From a virus: a stretch of DNA of 49,949 bases. Both the position numbers and the translations under genes were made by a program. The notes under the pieces are model-generated. The model saw only the letters and a program-made list of their open reading frames with translations. It was not told the origin of the DNA and made no database searches. How positions within the stretch are numbered: the first letter of the stretch is position 1; each line of letters opens with the position of its first letter. Shown here in pieces: positions 30,464-49,949 of the stretch. The stretch spans positions 1 through 49,949 of IMG/VR virus record IMGVR_UViG_3300044556_000087. The stretch is one strand, 5' to 3'.

Positions 30464-31570
30464 TTACAGGATGCTGTCCATCACGGAGAGAGCTTCTTTT
30501 TCGCGCTTTTCCGTGATGCTGTCATAGATATTAGCCGTCGTGTACACCGAGGCATGACCGAGGCGCTTCGAAACGTAGTCCAAGGCAATGCCGTTCTCGA
30601 TTAACATGGTAGCGTGAGTATGCCGGAACGAGTGGAAGGACAGCCCGCCGAAGTGCTCCCGGCACCAGAGGTTGAAGTACCGGGTCTTGTTGCTGGTGAG
30701 TGGTTTCCCGTTCTCCTCGGTGCACACCGCGTCCGATCGGCGGTAGTACCGTCCATACTCAAACTGGTTCCGCTCCTGCCAGAGCTTCTGGGCTTTCAGC
30801 TCGGCTGCCAATTTCTGGCCAAAGGTGATGACCCGCAGTGATGATGCAGTCTTCGGCGACTCGATACGGGCATCCCCAGTCTTATCGTATTTATTGCCTA
30901 CGACCTCCAGCGTATGCGCTTTTAGATCTACATTCGCCCAGCGCAGGGCCAGGCATTCCCCGAGCCGCATCCCGGTGCAGTAGGAGAGCATGCACGGCAT
31001 GTGGAGCTGATTCCCTCGCGGAAATCGTTCGAAAATCTGCTGAATCTGGTCAGCCGTGAAGACCTTAATCATCTGGAACTGCGGGGCATACCGGGGCACC
31101 CGTACGTTATCCATGGGGTTGATGGTAAGGTACCTGCGATTGGCCACACACCAACGGAACGAGGACCGCAGGACCGCTGCAATAGATTTCAGGGTACCTC
31201 GTGCATACGTATTCCGCAAACCCGTGATGTAGTCCTGCAGCATCGGAGTCGTGATGTCCTTCAGCCGGACCTTGGCAAAAGCAGGAGTCAGGTGATTATC
31301 GACGATGTTTTCATAGGCATCTACCGTGTTCGGTTTCAGGTTGATGCGGACTTCCTTTTCCATCCATTCCTTCAAGAAATCCGGATAGAGCATACTGGAC
31401 GGTTCGAAAAATTTCCCGGTCCGGTCTATCTCCTGCATGGCAGCACGATAAGCCCGGGCAGCCTCAGCACGGCTAAAACCGCCAAAGTGCTCGTGCTTAT
31501 GGTACCTGCCCATAGCATCCGTTTCGTTTATGGTATAGTACCATCTATCCTTGATTTGTCGTAAAAACAT
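30464..31570 (-). CDS. int: Phage integrase (tyrosine recombinase), lysogeny module
   Basis: HSFRHTHATMLIENGIALDYVSKRLGHASVYTTANIYDS catalytic region and N-terminal KDRWYYTINETD...GGFSRAEAARAY arm-binding-type domain. Likely start is ATG 31570 after aggaggctgatttac; track ORF extends to 31618. Confidence 0.9.
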   Translation of the reverse strand: MFLRQIKDRWYYTINETDAMGRYHKHEHFGGFSRAEAARAYRAAMQEIDRTGKFFEPSSMLYPDFLKEWMEKEVRINLKPNTVDAYENIVDNHLTPAFAKVRLKDITTPMLQDYITGLRNTYARGTLKSIAAVLRSSFRWCVANRRYLTINPMDNVRVPRYAPQFQMIKVFTADQIQQIFERFPRGNQLHMPCMLSYCTGMRLGECLALRWANVDLKAHTLEVVGNKYDKTGDARIESPKTASSLRVITFGQKLAAELKAQKLWQERNQFEYGRYYRRSDAVCTEENGKPLTSNKTRYFNLWCREHFGGLSFHSFRHTHATMLIENGIALDYVSKRLGHASVYTTANIYDSITEKREKEALSVMDSIL

Positions 31571-31685
31571 GTAAATCAGCCTCCTAATCATGGCGGATAG
31601 CGGGCTGATGTGGTACAATAAAACTGTAGATCAGCCCTAAATATCTACACATCGCCGGTCCGGTACTGGTAATACCATCCGGCAC

Positions 31686-32377: not shown

Positions 32378-32659
32378 TCATAAATAGTTGCAAAAGAAAT
32401 TAAATGTTTCCTTAACCTGATGGCCCCGTTGGCCATGCCGACACTTTTGACTTACCATTTTCTCCAGGAGGGTCGCCTGCGTCTCAGAGGAGAAATCCGC
32501 CCCATCGATATGCTGCAGTTCGTGTACGACTGCCTGGACTGCCGCTCTTCGGGACAACAGTGCATTGACGATAATCGTATATGTTCCGTCTTCATTCGGT
32601 GTTGTCATGGCTCTGACCTTCACTGGTAAATGTGTAGTAACTATGATATTGATATTCAA
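32378..32659 (-). CDS. Minimal ImmA/IrrE-like HExxH metalloprotease-motif protein
   Basis: YTIIVNALLSRRAAVQAVVHELQHIDG matches the ImmA/IrrE core (..in..l....q.f.laHElgH). TTG 32659 lies 1 nt after the repressor stop, with an alternative ATG at Met18. Only 93 aa. Confidence 0.55.
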   Translation of the reverse strand: MNINIIVTTHLPVKVRAMTTPNEDGTYTIIVNALLSRRAAVQAVVHELQHIDGADFSSETQATLLEKMVSQKCRHGQRGHQVKETFNFFCNYL

Positions 32660-32660
32660 G

Positions 32661-33038
32661 CTATTTGTTCCTTTCCGTTTTCAAAAACCGGATGTAGTTG
32701 GCCGCCTGCTGCATCTCCTCCGGGGACAGGTCCGCCGCTGCCGAGAAGAGTACCTTGAGCTCTGGATCCGTGCGCAGCTTTTCCGCCAGTTCCGCTGTGT
32801 CGGGATCATCGTAATAGCCGTTCTGGTCTTCAGTCTGTTCCCATCCCATGAGGGCACCCGGTGTCGTGTGCAGTGCCTGCGCAATCTTTTCTATCCGGTC
32901 AGATGGTATATTTCCAATGACCCCGGATTCATATCGTTGGATTGTCTGCCGACTGACCCCTACGATTTTAGCGACATCATCCAGTGTCATTTTCTGCTGT
33001 AATCTTGCTCTTTTAATATTTTCATTTAAAGTTGCCAT
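32661..33038 (-). CDS. CI-like XRE-family repressor
   Basis: LNENIKRARLQQKMTLDDVAKIVGVSRQTIQRYESG HTH. Divergent from the Cro-like gene. Likely start is ATG 33038 after gaagggg; track ORF extends to 33074. Confidence 0.85.
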   Translation of the reverse strand: MATLNENIKRARLQQKMTLDDVAKIVGVSRQTIQRYESGVIGNIPSDRIEKIAQALHTTPGALMGWEQTEDQNGYYDDPDTAELAEKLRTDPELKVLFSAAADLSPEEMQQAANYIRFLKTERNK

Positions 33039-33145
33039 AGCTAAGCCCCTTCTTGCTATATTGTATTTAATCATCTATAAGAGCATTATAGCACGAAAAT
33101 TACATATTATGCAACAAAAATATTATAAATTAGGTAAAAAATTAC

Positions 33146-33174
33146 TTGACACGGAACAAAATTAACAGTATACT
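33146..33174 (+). promoter_or_regulatory. Early rightward promoter TTGACA-N17-TATACT
   Basis: ttgaca (33146-33151), a 17-nt spacer, tatact (33169-33174). Lies 48 nt upstream of the Cro-like ATG. Confidence 0.6.
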
Positions 33175-33186
33175 CTAACCATGAAA

Positions 33187-33203
33187 GTTACCTAACACGT
33201 AAC
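33187..33203. promoter_or_regulatory. Operator-like inverted repeat GTTAC-N7-GTAAC (copy 1)
   Basis: aaGTTACctaacacGTAACaa, between the promoter and the first HTH gene. Confidence 0.45.
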
Positions 33204-33221
33204 AAGAAAAGAGGTGATATC

Positions 33222-33431
33222 ATGGTCGATACAAATGCCCTGCGCGGTATCATCGCGCGGGAAGGGAAATCCCAAGTGCAGGTAGCGGATGCGCTCGGCA
33301 TCACGCCTAAGACCTTTTATGAAAAGATGAAAAGGGGTGTCTTCGACTCGGACGAAATGTACGCAATGGTGAAATTCCTGAATATTTCTAATCCTGTAGA
33401 AATTTTTTTTGCCGATAAAGTTACGTATTAA
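33222..33431 (+). CDS. Cro-like HTH regulator
   Basis: 69 aa. KSQVQVADALGITPKTFYEKMKRG HTH. First gene of the rightward operon, with RBS aaaagaggtgatatc. Confidence 0.75.
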   Translation: MVDTNALRGIIAREGKSQVQVADALGITPKTFYEKMKRGVFDSDEMYAMVKFLNISNPVEIFFADKVTY

Positions 33432-33436
33432 GTAAC
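33420..33436. promoter_or_regulatory. Operator-like inverted repeat GTTAC-N7-GTAAC (copy 2)
   Basis: aaGTTACgtattaaGTAACaa, with the same flanks as copy 1. Spans the stop of the first HTH gene, upstream of the second. Confidence 0.45.
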
Positions 33437-33455
33437 AAAGGAGGGGCTGATTTAC

Positions 33456-33662
33456 ATGACAAAGCGGGTTGGCTATGCCAAACTCAAAGGCTTTTTAGTT
33501 GAGCACGGTATCCAACAGCAGGAGATAGCGGATGCGCTAGGTATAGACCGTTCTACATTCAATTCTAAATTGAACCGGAACAACGCGGATTTCACGTTAT
33601 CCGAAGTGCGTTATCTCTGCAGAACATACCATCTAGATTTCAATACATTTTTTATGGTTTAA
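33456..33662 (+). CDS. Second small HTH regulator (similar layout to 33222..33431)
   Basis: 68 aa. IQQQEIADALGIDRSTFNSKLNRN HTH. RBS aaaggagggg. Confidence 0.7.
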   Translation: MTKRVGYAKLKGFLVEHGIQQQEIADALGIDRSTFNSKLNRNNADFTLSEVRYLCRTYHLDFNTFFMV

Positions 33663-38229: not shown

Positions 38230-41088
38230 ATGGTTATAGGTATTGACCTAGAAACATACAGCGACATCGACCTAGCTAAGGCAGGTCTTTACAAATACGC
38301 CGAAAACAGTGAGATCCTATTATTTGCATTTGCCTATGGCGACGAGCCGGTGCAGGTCGTAGACATGGCCTGCGGCGAAGAGCTGCCAGAACAGGTGCTC
38401 CGAGACCTGACCGACCCGGACGTGCAGAAGACCGCCTTCAACGCGGCCTTCGAAATGCACGTCCTGGGCCACTGGCTCGGGCAGCGCCTGGACCCGGCAC
38501 AATGGTACTGCACCATGGTCCAATCCTACACACTGGGCTTGCCAGGGCATCTGAAAGACGTTGGTAAAGTACTGGGGCTGCCAGAGGATAAGCAGAAATT
38601 AGCCTACGGCAAACGGCTTATCCAGTATTTCTGCAAGCCCTGCCGACCAACAAAGGCAAACGGGGGCCGGACACGGAACCGGCCCGCCGATGCCCCTGAC
38701 AAATGGGAGCTGTTCAAAACGTACAACGCAAGAGACGTCGAGACAGAACGGGCCATCCGCAAAAAGGTATTCCGTTTCAACCCGACACCAACGGAGCGAA
38801 AGCTCTGGTGCCTGGACCAGAAGATAAACGATGCAGGAGTCCTGCTCGATGAAACGCTGGTTGACCAGGCTATCACACTCGATGCGCGGATCAAGAAGGA
38901 AACACTGGAAAAAGCAATAGCCCTCACGGGCATGGAGAACCCGAACAGCAACACTCAGCTTCTGGACTGGTTCGAACGGCAGGAAGGCTGGCGCCCCGAA
39001 ACACTGGACAAGAAAGCACGAGCGGAGTTGCTGATGCGGGACGACCTCATGCCGGAAACGAAGCAGATGCTCCGATATAAGCAACTTCTTAGCAAAACGT
39101 CGGTCAAGAAGTACGTAGCCATGAAAACAGCGGAATGCCGGGACGGGCGGGATCACGGAATGCTGCAGTTCTGCGGAGCCGCACGAACCGGGCGATGGTG
39201 CCTGACTGGTGACCACGAAGTTCTAACCCCCAAGGGCTGGGTTCGGATAGACCAATGGCAAGGCGGAGAAATCGCCTGCTGGAATACGTCTGGAGTAATT
39301 TCTTTCAGCCGAGCCAAAAAATTGGAATTCCCCTATGACGGCCCTATGATTACCATCAACACCAAACGCTGTGAACAAATCAGTACTCCGGATCATCGAA
39401 TGCCTTACCTTGCAAAGGATGGGCACTGGGACGTCACAGAAATAAAGAATCTCCTGCATAAACGGCCCAGTATTCCGTTCCATGGACAACGGTTTGTATC
39501 CTTCGGCAATGACGAGATATCGCTTCGGATTCTCATTATGACTCAGGCGGATGGCCATTACACGAAGGAAGCGCTACGATTCCATTTCTCGAAAATCCGT
39601 AAAATAGAGCGCTGCAAACATCTGCTCAGGCGGGGCGGGATACCATTCATCGTGGCACAAAACAGCGACAAAACGGTAACCATCACAATTCGGCAAAGAG
39701 AGATGCCGATGTACCTGCAGGTATTTCGGGATAAGGTATTTGGTACATGGATACTCGATGCACCAGCGGATATCGTCTTTGATGAGCTGCTACATTGGGA
39801 CGGGTACAAATCGTCAGAAAATACTATCCAGTATGTAACTACTATCAAGCAAAATGCGGACCTGATTCAGGCGCTGGCGGTAATGTCTGACCGCTCGGCA
39901 ACCCCACTCAAAAAACATGAGAACATAGAGAACTGGAGCACCGCTTATCTTGTAAACATCTGGAATACACCTGGTAAATCCAGCACAATACGAACCGAGA
40001 ACTTCGGCAAAATGGATTTCAAAGGAACCGTCTACTGCGCTGAAACCAAGACCGGGTTCTTCCTGGTCAGGCGAAATGGGAAAGTCTGGGTCACTGGGAA
40101 TTCTGGCAGAATCGTTCAGCTGCAAAATCTCCCCCAGAACCATTTAGAGGACTTAGACGACGCCAGAGAGTTCGTCAAAGCGGGCGACCTGGACAGCTTA
40201 GAGGTCTTCTATGACAACCCTTCGGACGTTCTGAGCCAGCTGATCCGCACGGCCTTCGTGGCAGGTAAGGGGAAACGCTTCATCGTTTCCGACTTCGCTG
40301 CCATCGAAGCCCGGGTCATCGCTTGGCTGGCGGATGAGGAATGGGAGATGAAGGCTTTCGCCGAAGGTAAAGACATCTACTGCGCCACAGCGAGTGCTAT
40401 GTTCGGTGTACCAGTCGTCAAGCATGGCATTAACGGCGATTTGAGGCAAAAAGGTAAAATTGCGACTTTGGCGTGTGGTTATGGGGGCGGAGTGAATGCC
40501 CTGAAGGCGTTCGGCGCCGATAAGATGGGACTCTCTGAGCAGCACATGCAGGATATCGTCACCAAATGGCGTCAATCCTCGCCTCACATCGTCCGGATGT
40601 GGGCCGACGTCGAACGAGCCGTCAAATCGGCTATCCGGCATAAAGGCGACCGGATAAAGTACACGCACGGTCTCGAGTTCTACACGAGGGCGGGGCTGCT
40701 CTTCATCAAGCTACCAAGCGGACGGGCCATCGCCTACGCCAAACCCGGAATCGAGCTGGAAACGAAGTTCAACAACCGTGAAGCCATCATCTACGAAGGA
40801 ACGCTGATGAACGGTGGCTGGGGCCGGTGCTTCACCTGGGGCGGCAAGCTGGTCGAAAACATCGTCCAGGCGACTGCCCGGGACTGCCTGGCCGTGGCTA
40901 TGCTGAGACTGGACGCCGCAGGCTACAAAATCGTGATGCACGTCCATGATGAGGTCATCCTCGAGATGCCGTACGGCCAGGGCTCGCTCGAAGAAGCTGC
41001 CGGCATCATGGGTGAGCCTATCCCGTGGGCCCCGGGGCTGCTGCTTAGGGCTGATGGCTATGAAACGCCGTACTACAAAAAGGACTGA
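38230..41088 (+). CDS. Family A DNA polymerase (3'-5' exonuclease plus polymerase) interrupted by an intein
   Basis: Exo I IGIDLETYS. The TGR...QNLP motif is split by the insert. Motif A VSDFAAIEARVIAWLA, KGKIATLACGYGGG, and motif C VMHVHDEVILE. Confidence 0.9.
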   Translation: MVIGIDLETYSDIDLAKAGLYKYAENSEILLFAFAYGDEPVQVVDMACGEELPEQVLRDLTDPDVQKTAFNAAFEMHVLGHWLGQRLDPAQWYCTMVQSYTLGLPGHLKDVGKVLGLPEDKQKLAYGKRLIQYFCKPCRPTKANGGRTRNRPADAPDKWELFKTYNARDVETERAIRKKVFRFNPTPTERKLWCLDQKINDAGVLLDETLVDQAITLDARIKKETLEKAIALTGMENPNSNTQLLDWFERQEGWRPETLDKKARAELLMRDDLMPETKQMLRYKQLLSKTSVKKYVAMKTAECRDGRDHGMLQFCGAARTGRWCLTGDHEVLTPKGWVRIDQWQGGEIACWNTSGVISFSRAKKLEFPYDGPMITINTKRCEQISTPDHRMPYLAKDGHWDVTEIKNLLHKRPSIPFHGQRFVSFGNDEISLRILIMTQADGHYTKEALRFHFSKIRKIERCKHLLRRGGIPFIVAQNSDKTVTITIRQREMPMYLQVFRDKVFGTWILDAPADIVFDELLHWDGYKSSENTIQYVTTIKQNADLIQALAVMSDRSATPLKKHENIENWSTAYLVNIWNTPGKSSTIRTENFGKMDFKGTVYCAETKTGFFLVRRNGKVWVTGNSGRIVQLQNLPQNHLEDLDDAREFVKAGDLDSLEVFYDNPSDVLSQLIRTAFVAGKGKRFIVSDFAAIEARVIAWLADEEWEMKAFAEGKDIYCATASAMFGVPVVKHGINGDLRQKGKIATLACGYGGGVNALKAFGADKMGLSEQHMQDIVTKWRQSSPHIVRMWADVERAVKSAIRHKGDRIKYTHGLEFYTRAGLLFIKLPSGRAIAYAKPGIELETKFNNREAIIYEGTLMNGGWGRCFTWGGKLVENIVQATARDCLAVAMLRLDAAGYKIVMHVHDEVILEMPYGQGSLEEAAGIMGEPIPWAPGLLLRADGYETPYYKKD
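39199..40101 (+). mobile_element. Intein (301 aa) with a LAGLIDADG-like homing endonuclease region, inserted in the PolA TGR/QNLP motif
   Basis: Starts CLTGDHEVLT (block A), then ISTPDHRM (block B, TxxH), ILIMTQADGH and LLHWDGY (LAGLIDADG-like), VYCAETKTGFFLVRR (block F), and ends KVWVTGN followed by Ser (+1). The exteins join to AARTGRW-SGRIVQLQNLP. Confidence 0.8.
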
Positions 41089-41092
41089 GAAT

Positions 41093-41848
41093 ATGAATGC
41101 TAAAGATACTGAAGCAATTTTAAAGATTATGGAGAGCGTGACTCTCCCTGCAAAGGAAGCCGGAAATGGCAACTTTGCCAAGAACACCCTGCAGTTTTTA
41201 AACTTTACCGGTGAATCCGTCGTAGCTACGGATACGCATATACTGGTCATCCTAAAAAAGTACCCGAGCACGCCTCATCTGGGGCATGCTGATGGGAGTC
41301 CGGCAGATACGCTCTGGAGTCAGGATGATTACCCAAAGTATAGCCAGCTGATACCTAAAAAAGACCAGGTAGACTGGCGTCATACCTGGCTGGAAGACGA
41401 TGGTCTGGAAATCCTGTACCAGCTGAAGGCCTTCCTCACGGGCATGGATAAAGCCATCAAGAAGGACAAGGTGGCCCGGAAGACGGGCCTCATCCGGCTG
41501 CACCATGAACGGGATGTACTCGACCTGTACACCGGGTGCCACGGGCTCGTGACGAAAACACGGCTCCTGGAAGGGCTGAAAGACAAGAAGGAATTCGACG
41601 GTTATTACGCCATGCGCTACGTCCTGGCAACGCTAGAAATCCTGAATCACACGAGCGCGTATCCGCCCCTTGAAATGTACGTAGCCAAAAAGCCGGAATG
41701 CATACAGCGCGAATGGTCACCGGTACTGGTGCTCGAAAACTTCGACGTCCTCATCCTGCTGAGTCCGCTGATGCGGATACCGGACTATGATGCGGTACGC
41801 CGATACTCGGACCAACAGATCCAGAAGGAACTGGATGCACTGCGCTGA
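41093..41848 (+). CDS. Two-domain DnaN (beta sliding clamp)-like protein
   Basis: LQFLNFTGESVVATDTHILVI (compare E. coli beta YLNGMLFETEGEELRTVATDGHRLAV), DDYPKYSQLIPKK (compare GRFPDYRRVLPKN), YYAMRYVLATLEIL (compare FNVSYVLDVLNAL), and ending LILLSPLMRI (compare YVVMPMRL). 251 aa. Start ATG 41093; the upstream part of track ORF 40946.. overlaps PolA. Confidence 0.65.
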   Translation: MNAKDTEAILKIMESVTLPAKEAGNGNFAKNTLQFLNFTGESVVATDTHILVILKKYPSTPHLGHADGSPADTLWSQDDYPKYSQLIPKKDQVDWRHTWLEDDGLEILYQLKAFLTGMDKAIKKDKVARKTGLIRLHHERDVLDLYTGCHGLVTKTRLLEGLKDKKEFDGYYAMRYVLATLEILNHTSAYPPLEMYVAKKPECIQREWSPVLVLENFDVLILLSPLMRIPDYDAVRRYSDQQIQKELDALR

Positions 41849-49474: not shown

Positions 49475-49949
49475 AGAAAAAGAAATCCGAGCAGCTAGAA
49501 GATATTGTGCGAAAAATCGCACAAAGTCAAACGAGTCTTACAGAAAAGTATGAACTGTACAGACAGTTGGTGGCGACACAGAAGATAATGAAACGACCAC
49601 CGAAGAAGTTTAAAAGCGGAAGCTGGCTATTATACGCGCTATGCGACGAGGTAGTCAACGAGTATCTGGCGGCACCGGCTATCAGTAAGCCGAAATTTCT
49701 GGGCGATTATATCCGTGAACTGGATGCAGAGTTACAGCGGTTCCGGGATAAATTCAATGGGGTATCGGATAAGCATATAAACGAGTACGAGCTATATTCG
49801 TTTACCAGCGTCCGGCATAAGCGGCGGATAGAGAAACGGTATGCCGAGTTACATCCGGACTTAGCCGAGGCGGATGCCCTGCTTCGAGGGTTGACCTATC
49901 TGAGACGGGCTGGCATCCGGAACGACGTATTAGAAAAACGATTTGATGA
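49471..49949 (+). CDS. Hypothetical protein, 5' part of the junction-spanning CDS (continues at 128..239 after the repeat)
   Basis: TTG 49471 overlaps the previous stop (TTGA) and is preceded by ggagag. The frame stays open to the window end and is in register with 3..239. The start codon is uncertain. Confidence 0.55.
   Translation, partial: MKKKKSEQLEDIVRKIAQSQTSLTEKYELYRQLVATQKIMKRPPKKFKSGSWLLYALCDEVVNEYLAAPAISKPKFLGDYIRELDAELQRFRDKFNGVSDKHINEYELYSFTSVRHKRRIEKRYAELHPDLAEADALLRGLTYLRRAGIRNDVLEKRFD
49823..49949. repeat. Right copy of the exact 127-bp terminal direct repeat (identical to 1-127)
   Basis: Base-for-base identity with 1-127 read directly from the sequence. Confidence 0.95.

Follow-up and report, generated by a model that had tools for sequence, protein, structure and literature searches.

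A probable class 1 LAGLIDADG intein in motif 2 of the family A DNA polymerase of a temperate siphophage

For some phages (APSE, SETP3), inteins named 'dpol' are recorded in InBase. Class 1 inteins excise themselves from their host proteins by a four-step pathway (PMC4031507, PMC10663303). Class 3 inteins are defined by the lack of a nucleophile (Cys, Ser, or Thr) at position 1 together with the WCT triplet, which consists of Trp B:12, Cys F:4, and Thr G:5 (PMC2807308, PMC5050341). Among the inteins of mycobacteriophages, those of class 1 often lack the penultimate His, and the RDF intein, whose penultimate residue is Gly, splices efficiently (PMC5050341); complete splicing of this intein in Bethlehem gp51 was shown experimentally, its endonuclease is toxic and therefore active, and the Gly accelerates its splicing. 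Here, we analyze an insert of 301 amino acids (aa) in the DNA polymerase encoded by IMG/VR virus record IMGVR_UViG_3300044556_000087, of which positions 1 to 49,949 were examined; this whole stretch of 49,949 nucleotides (nt) is referred to as the window. The insert is very probably a bifunctional class 1 LAGLIDADG intein located in motif 2 of a phage replicative family A polymerase. An initial annotation, made from the letters of the DNA and a list of open reading frames (ORFs), had proposed an intein at this position, and wherever this reading could be checked by computation, the results support it.

The ORF at 38230..41088 on the plus strand encodes a 952-aa family A DNA polymerase, of which residues 324-624 correspond exactly to nt 39199..40101 and constitute the in-frame insert (Table 1). 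In Pfam, the host polymerase matches PF00476 (DNA_pol_A) with an E-value of 1.2e-21 and PF01612 (3'-5' exonuclease) below threshold. Alignment with Taq and Klenow polymerases places motifs 2, A, B, and C in the DNA_pol_A domain, and the protein shares 51% identity with the polymerase of Bacillus phage SPO2 over about 70% of the query. The N-extein contains a 3'-5' exonuclease-like N-terminal part and the start of the polymerase domain, and terminates in ...GAARTGRW. Removal of the insert leaves a protein of 651 aa, which is also the size of the insert-less homologues, with the junction AARTGRW-SGRIVQLQNLP, as had been claimed. In a phmmer alignment, the spliced sequence lines up with TGRLSSSDPNLQNIP of Taq (longer stretch ATATGRLSSSDPNLQNIP); this Taq stretch alone yields 0.4 bits only, and the correspondence rests on the motif register. 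Judged from the sequence, the insertion point is within polymerase motif 2 (TGR...QNLP). The strings first quoted for the insert (CLTGDHEVLT, TPDH, ILIMTQADGH, LLHWDGY, and a C-terminus reading VYCAETKTGFFLVRRNGKVWVTGN followed by Ser) are all present. The insert combines the block A nucleophile, the TxxH of block B, a C-terminal Asn followed by Ser at +1, and a position within a conserved motif, all of which are features of inteins.

A set of 149 homologous proteins fetched from the whole-protein search shows that the insertion is clean. Insert-less homologues of 651 aa, several of them from Megasphaera, are 82-83% identical to the exteins and read RTGRW/AGRLVQLQNLP (a slash marks the insertion point here and below), and the carriers, of about 950 aa, include proteins of Clostridium tyrobutyricum, Sporomusa ovata, and Peptoniphilus harei. 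The extent of the insert given initially, 39199-40101, is confirmed exactly, and the objection that insert-less homologues might not exist, or that the segment might be a normal polymerase subdomain, is answered by the 651-aa proteins. The +1 residue is Ser in all 86 insert-bearing homologues and Ala in all 32 insert-less ones, as expected if the splicing nucleophile is needed solely when the insert is present. In the intein-less allele L007, the sequence around the site is GGCCGATGG/GCAGGCCGG, also given as ...CGGTCAGGCCGATGG/GCAGGCCGGCTGGTACAGCTG.... The closest extein relatives carry no intein. One carrier, P0002, has a polymerase that is 99% identical and is counted as the same phage lineage; the closest carriers outside this lineage show only 65% extein identity, and the distribution is therefore sporadic. 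The insert-bearing allele was found in independent samples, and the N-terminal intein junction is spanned by short contigs from wastewater samples. Many other database entries (P0140, P0141, P0142, P0126, and others) are polymerase fragments that begin or end inside the endonuclease domain, some of them with apparent frameshifts; they may represent decaying alleles or assembly breaks.

A natural mini-intein defines the two domains of the element. On the 82.5-kb contig L006, a polymerase that is 97% identical (P0003) carries the same intein, from which residues 96-270 are precisely gone. The remaining 126 aa (L006:3970-4347) keep residues 1-95 and 271-301 with the splicing blocks intact, and since the deletion removes exactly residues 96-270, it sets the boundary between the endonuclease and the Hint domain. 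L006 is otherwise 99% identical to the window; it also lacks about 350 nt (window 41467-41818) within ORF 41087-41848, a small gene downstream of the polymerase with a weak 'DNA polymerase' match in PHROGs.

The fold of the insert supports the Hint and LAGLIDADG domains that had been suggested from the motifs. A search of PDB sequences with the single insert sequence gave nothing meaningful. With a profile of the insert (alignment A2, built from 23 diverse copies), 11 of the 12 PDB matches are inteins, among them Spl DnaX with an E-value of 0.0074, and the twelfth is the LAGLIDADG enzyme 2dch (E-value 0.19), which matches the central region; all of these matches are weak. The AlphaFold2 model computed from A2 has a predicted local distance difference test (pLDDT) score of 95 and a predicted template modelling (pTM) score of 0.91. 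When this model is compared with the PDB by Foldseek, the top 16 matches are all endonuclease-containing inteins (TliVMA, PI-SceI, PhoVMA, PI-PfuI, and PI-TkoII), with the best E-value (1.9e-14) for TliVMA (7qsu) and a query-normalized template modelling score (TMq) of 0.70 for PI-PfuI. The central part matches I-DmoI, I-Tsp061I, and WhiA-N with a Foldseek probability of 1.0 and TM(target) of 0.5-0.6, and the matches to the splicing domain include the class 3 split intein AceL NrdHF (6zgq). The N- and C-terminal segments form a Hint fold according to the model, Foldseek, and the mini-intein. The LAGLIDADG-like strings lie at or just past the C-terminal ends of model helices 106-118 and 190-197 and lead to D118-G119 and D201-G202, so that the model would place two LAGLIDADG helices with their acidic residues in an alpha-beta-beta-alpha-beta-beta-alpha fold. 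Matches of the insert in PHROGs are to the 'RNR' and 'PhoH-like' families only and most likely arise because some members of these families carry an intein.

Pfam and NCBIfam miss the whole phage intein clade of which the element is a member, although this clade is very large. In a search of 1.84 billion cluster representatives, the insert profile recovers 14,804 representatives at E<=0.001 and 1,637 at E<=1e-30, which goes far beyond chance. Residues were counted in 139 full-length representatives (50%-identity level) out of the best 150 matches. His at B:10 and Cys at F:4 are found in all 139, Thr at B:7 and Asn at G:7 in 138 each, Gly at G:6 in 136, and Thr or Ser at G:5 in 133; position 1 is Cys in all of the 122 representatives aligned there, and B:12 is M, I, V, L, or F but never Trp. 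At +1, 90 representatives have Ser, 28 have Cys, and 20 have Thr, which makes a nucleophile in 138 of the 139, and the endonuclease Asp residues are kept in 136 (D118) and 134 (D201). The residue aligned with Arg291 is Arg in 132 and Lys in 7. The shared signature, displayed by alignment A3, thus consists of Cys1, TxxH, Cys at F:4, and a C-terminal Thr-Gly-Asn. The penultimate Gly, noted initially as a departure from the usual His, is present as Gly300, but given that the His is absent in 138 of the 139 representatives, it is a clade trait and neither a defect nor an oddity of a single copy.

Many different host proteins carry members of the clade, and in every case the insertion point lies in a conserved motif. 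At least 59 of the 139 representatives share the ...TGRW/SG... context, and in others the insertion point within this polymerase motif is shifted by a few residues (...AH/TGRW... or ...G/xNLQN...). Further hosts are TOPRIM primase, RNR alpha and beta, TerL, RtcB, helicases, methylases, phosphoesterases, other PolA lineages, and the NAMPT of Twort-like staphylococcal phages. In the metagenomic protein P0144 (525 aa), a DnaQ/RNase T-like exonuclease is split at GHN/CSFD by an intein of this family that is 34% identical from end to end; at least 15 of the 139 representatives are found in this context. A tblastn search of GenBank phages with the insert matched 358 records, 300 of them over the full length, at 23-31% identity; among 50,697 GenBank phage records, there was no close counterpart, the best match being 31% identical and in other host genes. 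In the literature, no paper was found on an intein at the motif-2 site of PolA.

From the sequence, we infer the splicing chemistry, the endonuclease activity, and homing as follows. Because Cys1, TxxH, the terminal Asn, and Ser+1 are all present, the class 1 pathway is taken as the default. Once the polymerase has been translated as a precursor of 952 aa, self-excision by this pathway is the most likely fate of the Hint domain (residues 1-95 and 271-301). An N-to-S acyl shift at Cys1, assisted by T63 and H66 of block B, would be followed by transesterification, in which the N-extein is passed to Ser+1. Cyclization of Asn301, without the help of a penultimate His as is typical of the clade, would then free the intein, and an O-to-N shift would give the active polymerase of 651 aa, in which ...TGRW-SGR... 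is contiguous again. The central domain of 175 residues is predicted to be a compact monomeric two-motif LAGLIDADG endonuclease with D118 and D201 as catalytic residues. In a mixed infection, or between phage and prophage, this enzyme would cleave a polymerase allele that is free of the intein, and repair would copy the intein into the cut allele (homing) and co-convert the +1 Ala codon to Ser.

The identification as an intein draws on the insertion itself, the fold, the residue conservation, the sporadic distribution, the mini-intein, and the occurrence in multiple host proteins, and several observations weigh against it. Pfam and NCBIfam searches with the insert returned no intein or LAGLIDADG match, including LAGLIDADG_1 and LAGLIDADG_3 of Pfam. 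Recognized relatives in the clade are missed by Pfam as well, and two of them give sub-threshold LAGLIDADG matches only, so the missing match reflects a gap in the models and was rejected as an argument against an intein. There is no His in either block F or block G, hence neither of the residues that usually assist Asn cyclization is present, and G:6, at which His is common but not obligatory in inteins and exceptions that splice have been published, is Gly. In base composition, the insert is indeed more AT-rich than its surroundings, as the initial annotation had stated, with a guanine plus cytosine (GC) content of 48.2% versus 55.8% in the N-extein and 57.4% in the C-extein; at third codon positions (GC3) the values are 54.5%, 67%, and 71%. 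However, 12.5% of the 903-nt windows of the genome are as low or lower in GC, which makes GC alone weak evidence of horizontal acquisition, and composition was rejected as proof of it. The mean identity to other carriers is approximately equal for intein and extein (~55%), with no clear incongruence beyond the sporadic distribution, and the DNA flanking the site is identical to the empty allele at 68 of 90 positions, compared with 76.6% over the gene, which gives no signal of recent homing. Taken together, the similar divergence and the lack of raised flanking identity show no sign of very recent transfer. Joints between presence and absence of the insert were sought in public runs (short Logan contigs) and no informative ones were found; the joints reported all trace back to a single contig and have no relation to the ends of the intein.

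The point at which the intein reading leaves most room for an alternative is the state of the endonuclease. The endonuclease is probably active, because all the family-invariant residues are intact, namely both LAGLIDADG acidic residues and K132, R134, K135, R138, E196, W200, N208, and Q211; the domain is also modelled with high confidence, and the distribution among close relatives is sporadic. It is possible, though distinctly less so, that the splicing domain works while the endonuclease of this copy is inactive, in which case the element would be a vertically inherited passenger on its way to a mini-intein. Such a state would agree with the similar divergence of intein and extein, with the missing signal of recent transfer, and with the near-identical phage on L006, which has already lost the endonuclease domain, and inactive endonuclease domains inside inteins are documented (PMC8966425).

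A second alternative concerns Cys280 at F:4, which may have a non-standard role, either in a class 3-like relay with Thr299 through a branched intermediate between Cys1 and Ser+1, or in a Cys1-Cys280 disulfide. The clade-wide conservation of Cys F:4 and of Thr or Ser at G:5, the loss of the penultimate His, and the class 3 split intein among the Foldseek matches are compatible with such a role. Inteins of class 3 have a protease-like triad, made up of Cys F:4, His B:10, and Thr G:5, beside the N-terminal scissile bond (PMC7664689), and disulfide trapping of Cys1 is a known mode of regulation (PMC10663303). On the other hand, Cys1 is conserved and B:12, which is Met68 in this intein, is never Trp, so two of the defining features of class 3 fail; membership in class 3, prompted by Cys F:4 and Thr G:5, was rejected on these grounds. 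Moreover, Cys ranks second in frequency among the F:4 residues of inteins as a whole (PMC4031507), and the related mycobacteriophage inteins are classed as class 1 (PMC5050341). A special role of Cys280 is thus unlikely, and we consider it similarly doubtful that the 'Cys1/Cys-F:4/Thr-Gly-Asn' clade, with no His in blocks F and G, is a mechanistically distinct type of intein. If a Cys1-Cys280 disulfide switch did exist, it would tie the maturation of a phage replication enzyme to the redox state of the host.

The missing penultimate His could also point to a BIL-like Hint autoprocessing domain, which would cleave without ligating and leave the polymerase in two pieces or inactive. This is highly improbable: a +1 nucleophile strictly accompanies the insert and covaries with it, the Asn at the C-terminus is conserved, the motif that the insert interrupts needs to be contiguous, and splicing has been published for relatives within the clade. 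An ordinary lineage-specific polymerase subdomain, or an artefact of annotation or assembly, for which only the lack of a Pfam or NCBIfam domain could be cited, is refuted by the insert-less homologues among the closest relatives, the Hint plus LAGLIDADG fold, the same element in unrelated proteins, and the recurrence of the allele in independent samples.

The genome that carries the predicted intein is that of a temperate siphophage. Nucleotides 1-127 of the window are identical to 49823-49949, from which the window is taken to be a complete genome, circularly assembled and about 49.8 kb in size. Its genes encode the terminase (TerL), portal, major head protein (MCP), tape measure (TMP), integrase, and exonuclease, as well as a Gp2.5-like SSB, the polymerase, a primase-helicase, and an SNF2-type helicase. 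The sample is a bioreactor sludge metagenome, and the relatives from Megasphaera, Clostridium, and Sporomusa suggest that the phage host is probably an anaerobe. The lowest GC content of the genome (down to 37.8%, against a mean of 52%) occurs at 32500-33500, just past the integrase, in the presumed lysogeny or early region.

Table 1. Positions of the polymerase parts, the predicted intein and its motifs, and other features in the window.
Feature	Position (nt)	Strand	Evidence or remark
Integrase	30464-31618	-	
Replication module	36.4-46.6 kb		
N-extein, residues 1-323	38230..39198	+	PF00476, sub-threshold PF01612; aligns with 651-aa insert-less homologues
Predicted intein, 301 aa, Cys1 to Asn301	39199..40101	+	Presence/absence in homologues; AlphaFold2; Foldseek
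Hint N-terminal part, intein residues 1-95	39199..39483	+	C1, T63, H66 invariant; kept in mini-intein
Block A Cys1	39199-39201	+	CLTGDHEVLT = intein residues 1-10
Block B T63-P-D-H66 (TPDH, residues 63-66)	39385-39396	+	
Predicted LAGLIDADG homing-endonuclease domain, intein residues 96-270	39484..40008	+	Model, Foldseek, conservation, mini-intein deletion
Endonuclease motif 1, ...LRILIMTQAD118G	D118 at 39550-39552	+	
Endonuclease motif 2, ...FDELLHWD201G	D201 at 39799-39801	+	
Hint C-terminal part, intein residues 271-301	40009..40101	+	Conservation among 139 representatives
Block F Cys280 at F:4	40036-40038	+	
Block G V-W-V-T299-G300-N301	40093-40101	+	
+1 residue Ser (TCT), predicted transesterification nucleophile	40102..40104	+	Covaries with insert
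C-extein, residues 625-952 and stop	40102..41088	+	Starts SGRIVQLQNLPQNH; motifs A, B, C
Vacant site b, between ...KIATLA and CGYGG, O-helix (motif B)	40473/40474	+	Alignment A1

A second intein site (site b in Table 1) exists in the same SPO2-like polymerase family and likewise falls in a catalytic motif. The window has no intein there, but L006 (4720-5646) and Streptococcus phage Javan113 (L008) have one of about 309 aa. In contrast to the motif-2 intein, this is a canonical C...HN/C intein and is unrelated to it; mini versions are also seen, and some relatives carry both inteins, with total lengths of 1086-1270 aa. The in-frame center of the site-b intein of L006 is basic and shows no domain match and no recognizable fold. 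Out of frame within it lies a 208-aa ORF (L006:4931-5557, plus strand) that matches HNH PHROGs (phrog_374, 2.8e-22) and, weakly, endonuclease VII. A similar intein architecture, termed 'out-of-frame HEN', has been described in actinobacteriophages (bioRxiv 10.1101/2025.01.02.630785).

Two things are new in this case: the insertion into motif 2 of an SPO2-like phage polymerase, a host site that is unannotated in public records, and the scale at which the clade is invisible to curated models. The find leaves the current understanding of inteins unchanged and is a correct but fairly ordinary case. For annotation, the replicative polymerase should presumably be read as a spliced enzyme of 651 aa and not as a protein of 952 aa; the public entries of its homologues from Clostridium tyrobutyricum, Sporomusa ovata, and Peptoniphilus harei are labelled 'DNA polymerase' only. 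A profile such as alignment A2 would recover the clade that Pfam and NCBIfam miss. As a splicing tool, the compact natural mini-intein of 126 aa, which has Ser at +1 and lacks a penultimate His, could be of interest. Closely related phages with the empty site, the full intein, and the mini-intein, together with the second, unrelated intein, provide material for studying gain, decay, and interference.

Compared with inteins of known structure, the window intein shares the Hint fold with a nested LAGLIDADG endonuclease with TliVMA (7qsu), PI-SceI (1vde), PI-PfuI (1dq3), and PI-TkoII (2cw7), at Foldseek E-values of 1.9e-14 to 1.5e-7, TMq of 0.57-0.70, and 9-16% sequence identity. These archaeal and yeast inteins are larger (360-540 aa), whereas the endonuclease domain of the window intein is compact, about 175 aa, like I-DmoI. 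The solved inteins have extra DNA-recognition regions and a penultimate His. The class 3 inteins (MP-Be DnaB, Mch/Msm DnaB1, and AceL NrdHF) share Cys F:4, Thr G:5, the Hint fold, and the association with phages, but they keep His at G:6 (T-H-N), which the window intein lacks, and the window intein has Cys1 and no Trp at B:12. The RDF (metallophosphoesterase) intein of Bethlehem gp51 is, like the window intein, a phage intein assigned to class 1 with a penultimate Gly. The Turj99 gp50 allele of the RDF intein ends in VWC...LTGN/S, which is the block F/G signature of the window intein; it is about 19% identical (pairwise E-value 1e-6) and lies in a different extein, and the Turj99 allele is assumed to equal the tested Bethlehem allele. 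The TOPRIM primase gp53 of Turj99 (mycobacteriophage cluster A1; PMC5050341), annotated as 'intein-containing topoisomerase primase', contains a full-length homologue with 28-29% identity over 301 residues (E-value ~1e-22). This intein differs from the window intein in its site (...EGE/CD... in TOPRIM versus ...TGRW/SG... in PolA), in its +1 residue (Cys versus Ser), and in its phage, since Turj99 is an actinobacteriophage and the closest polymerase relatives of the window phage are from Megasphaera. The two inteins have in common their architecture and size, Cys1, TPxH, the ADG and WDG motifs, Cys at F:4, and the terminal V-T-G-N followed by a nucleophile.

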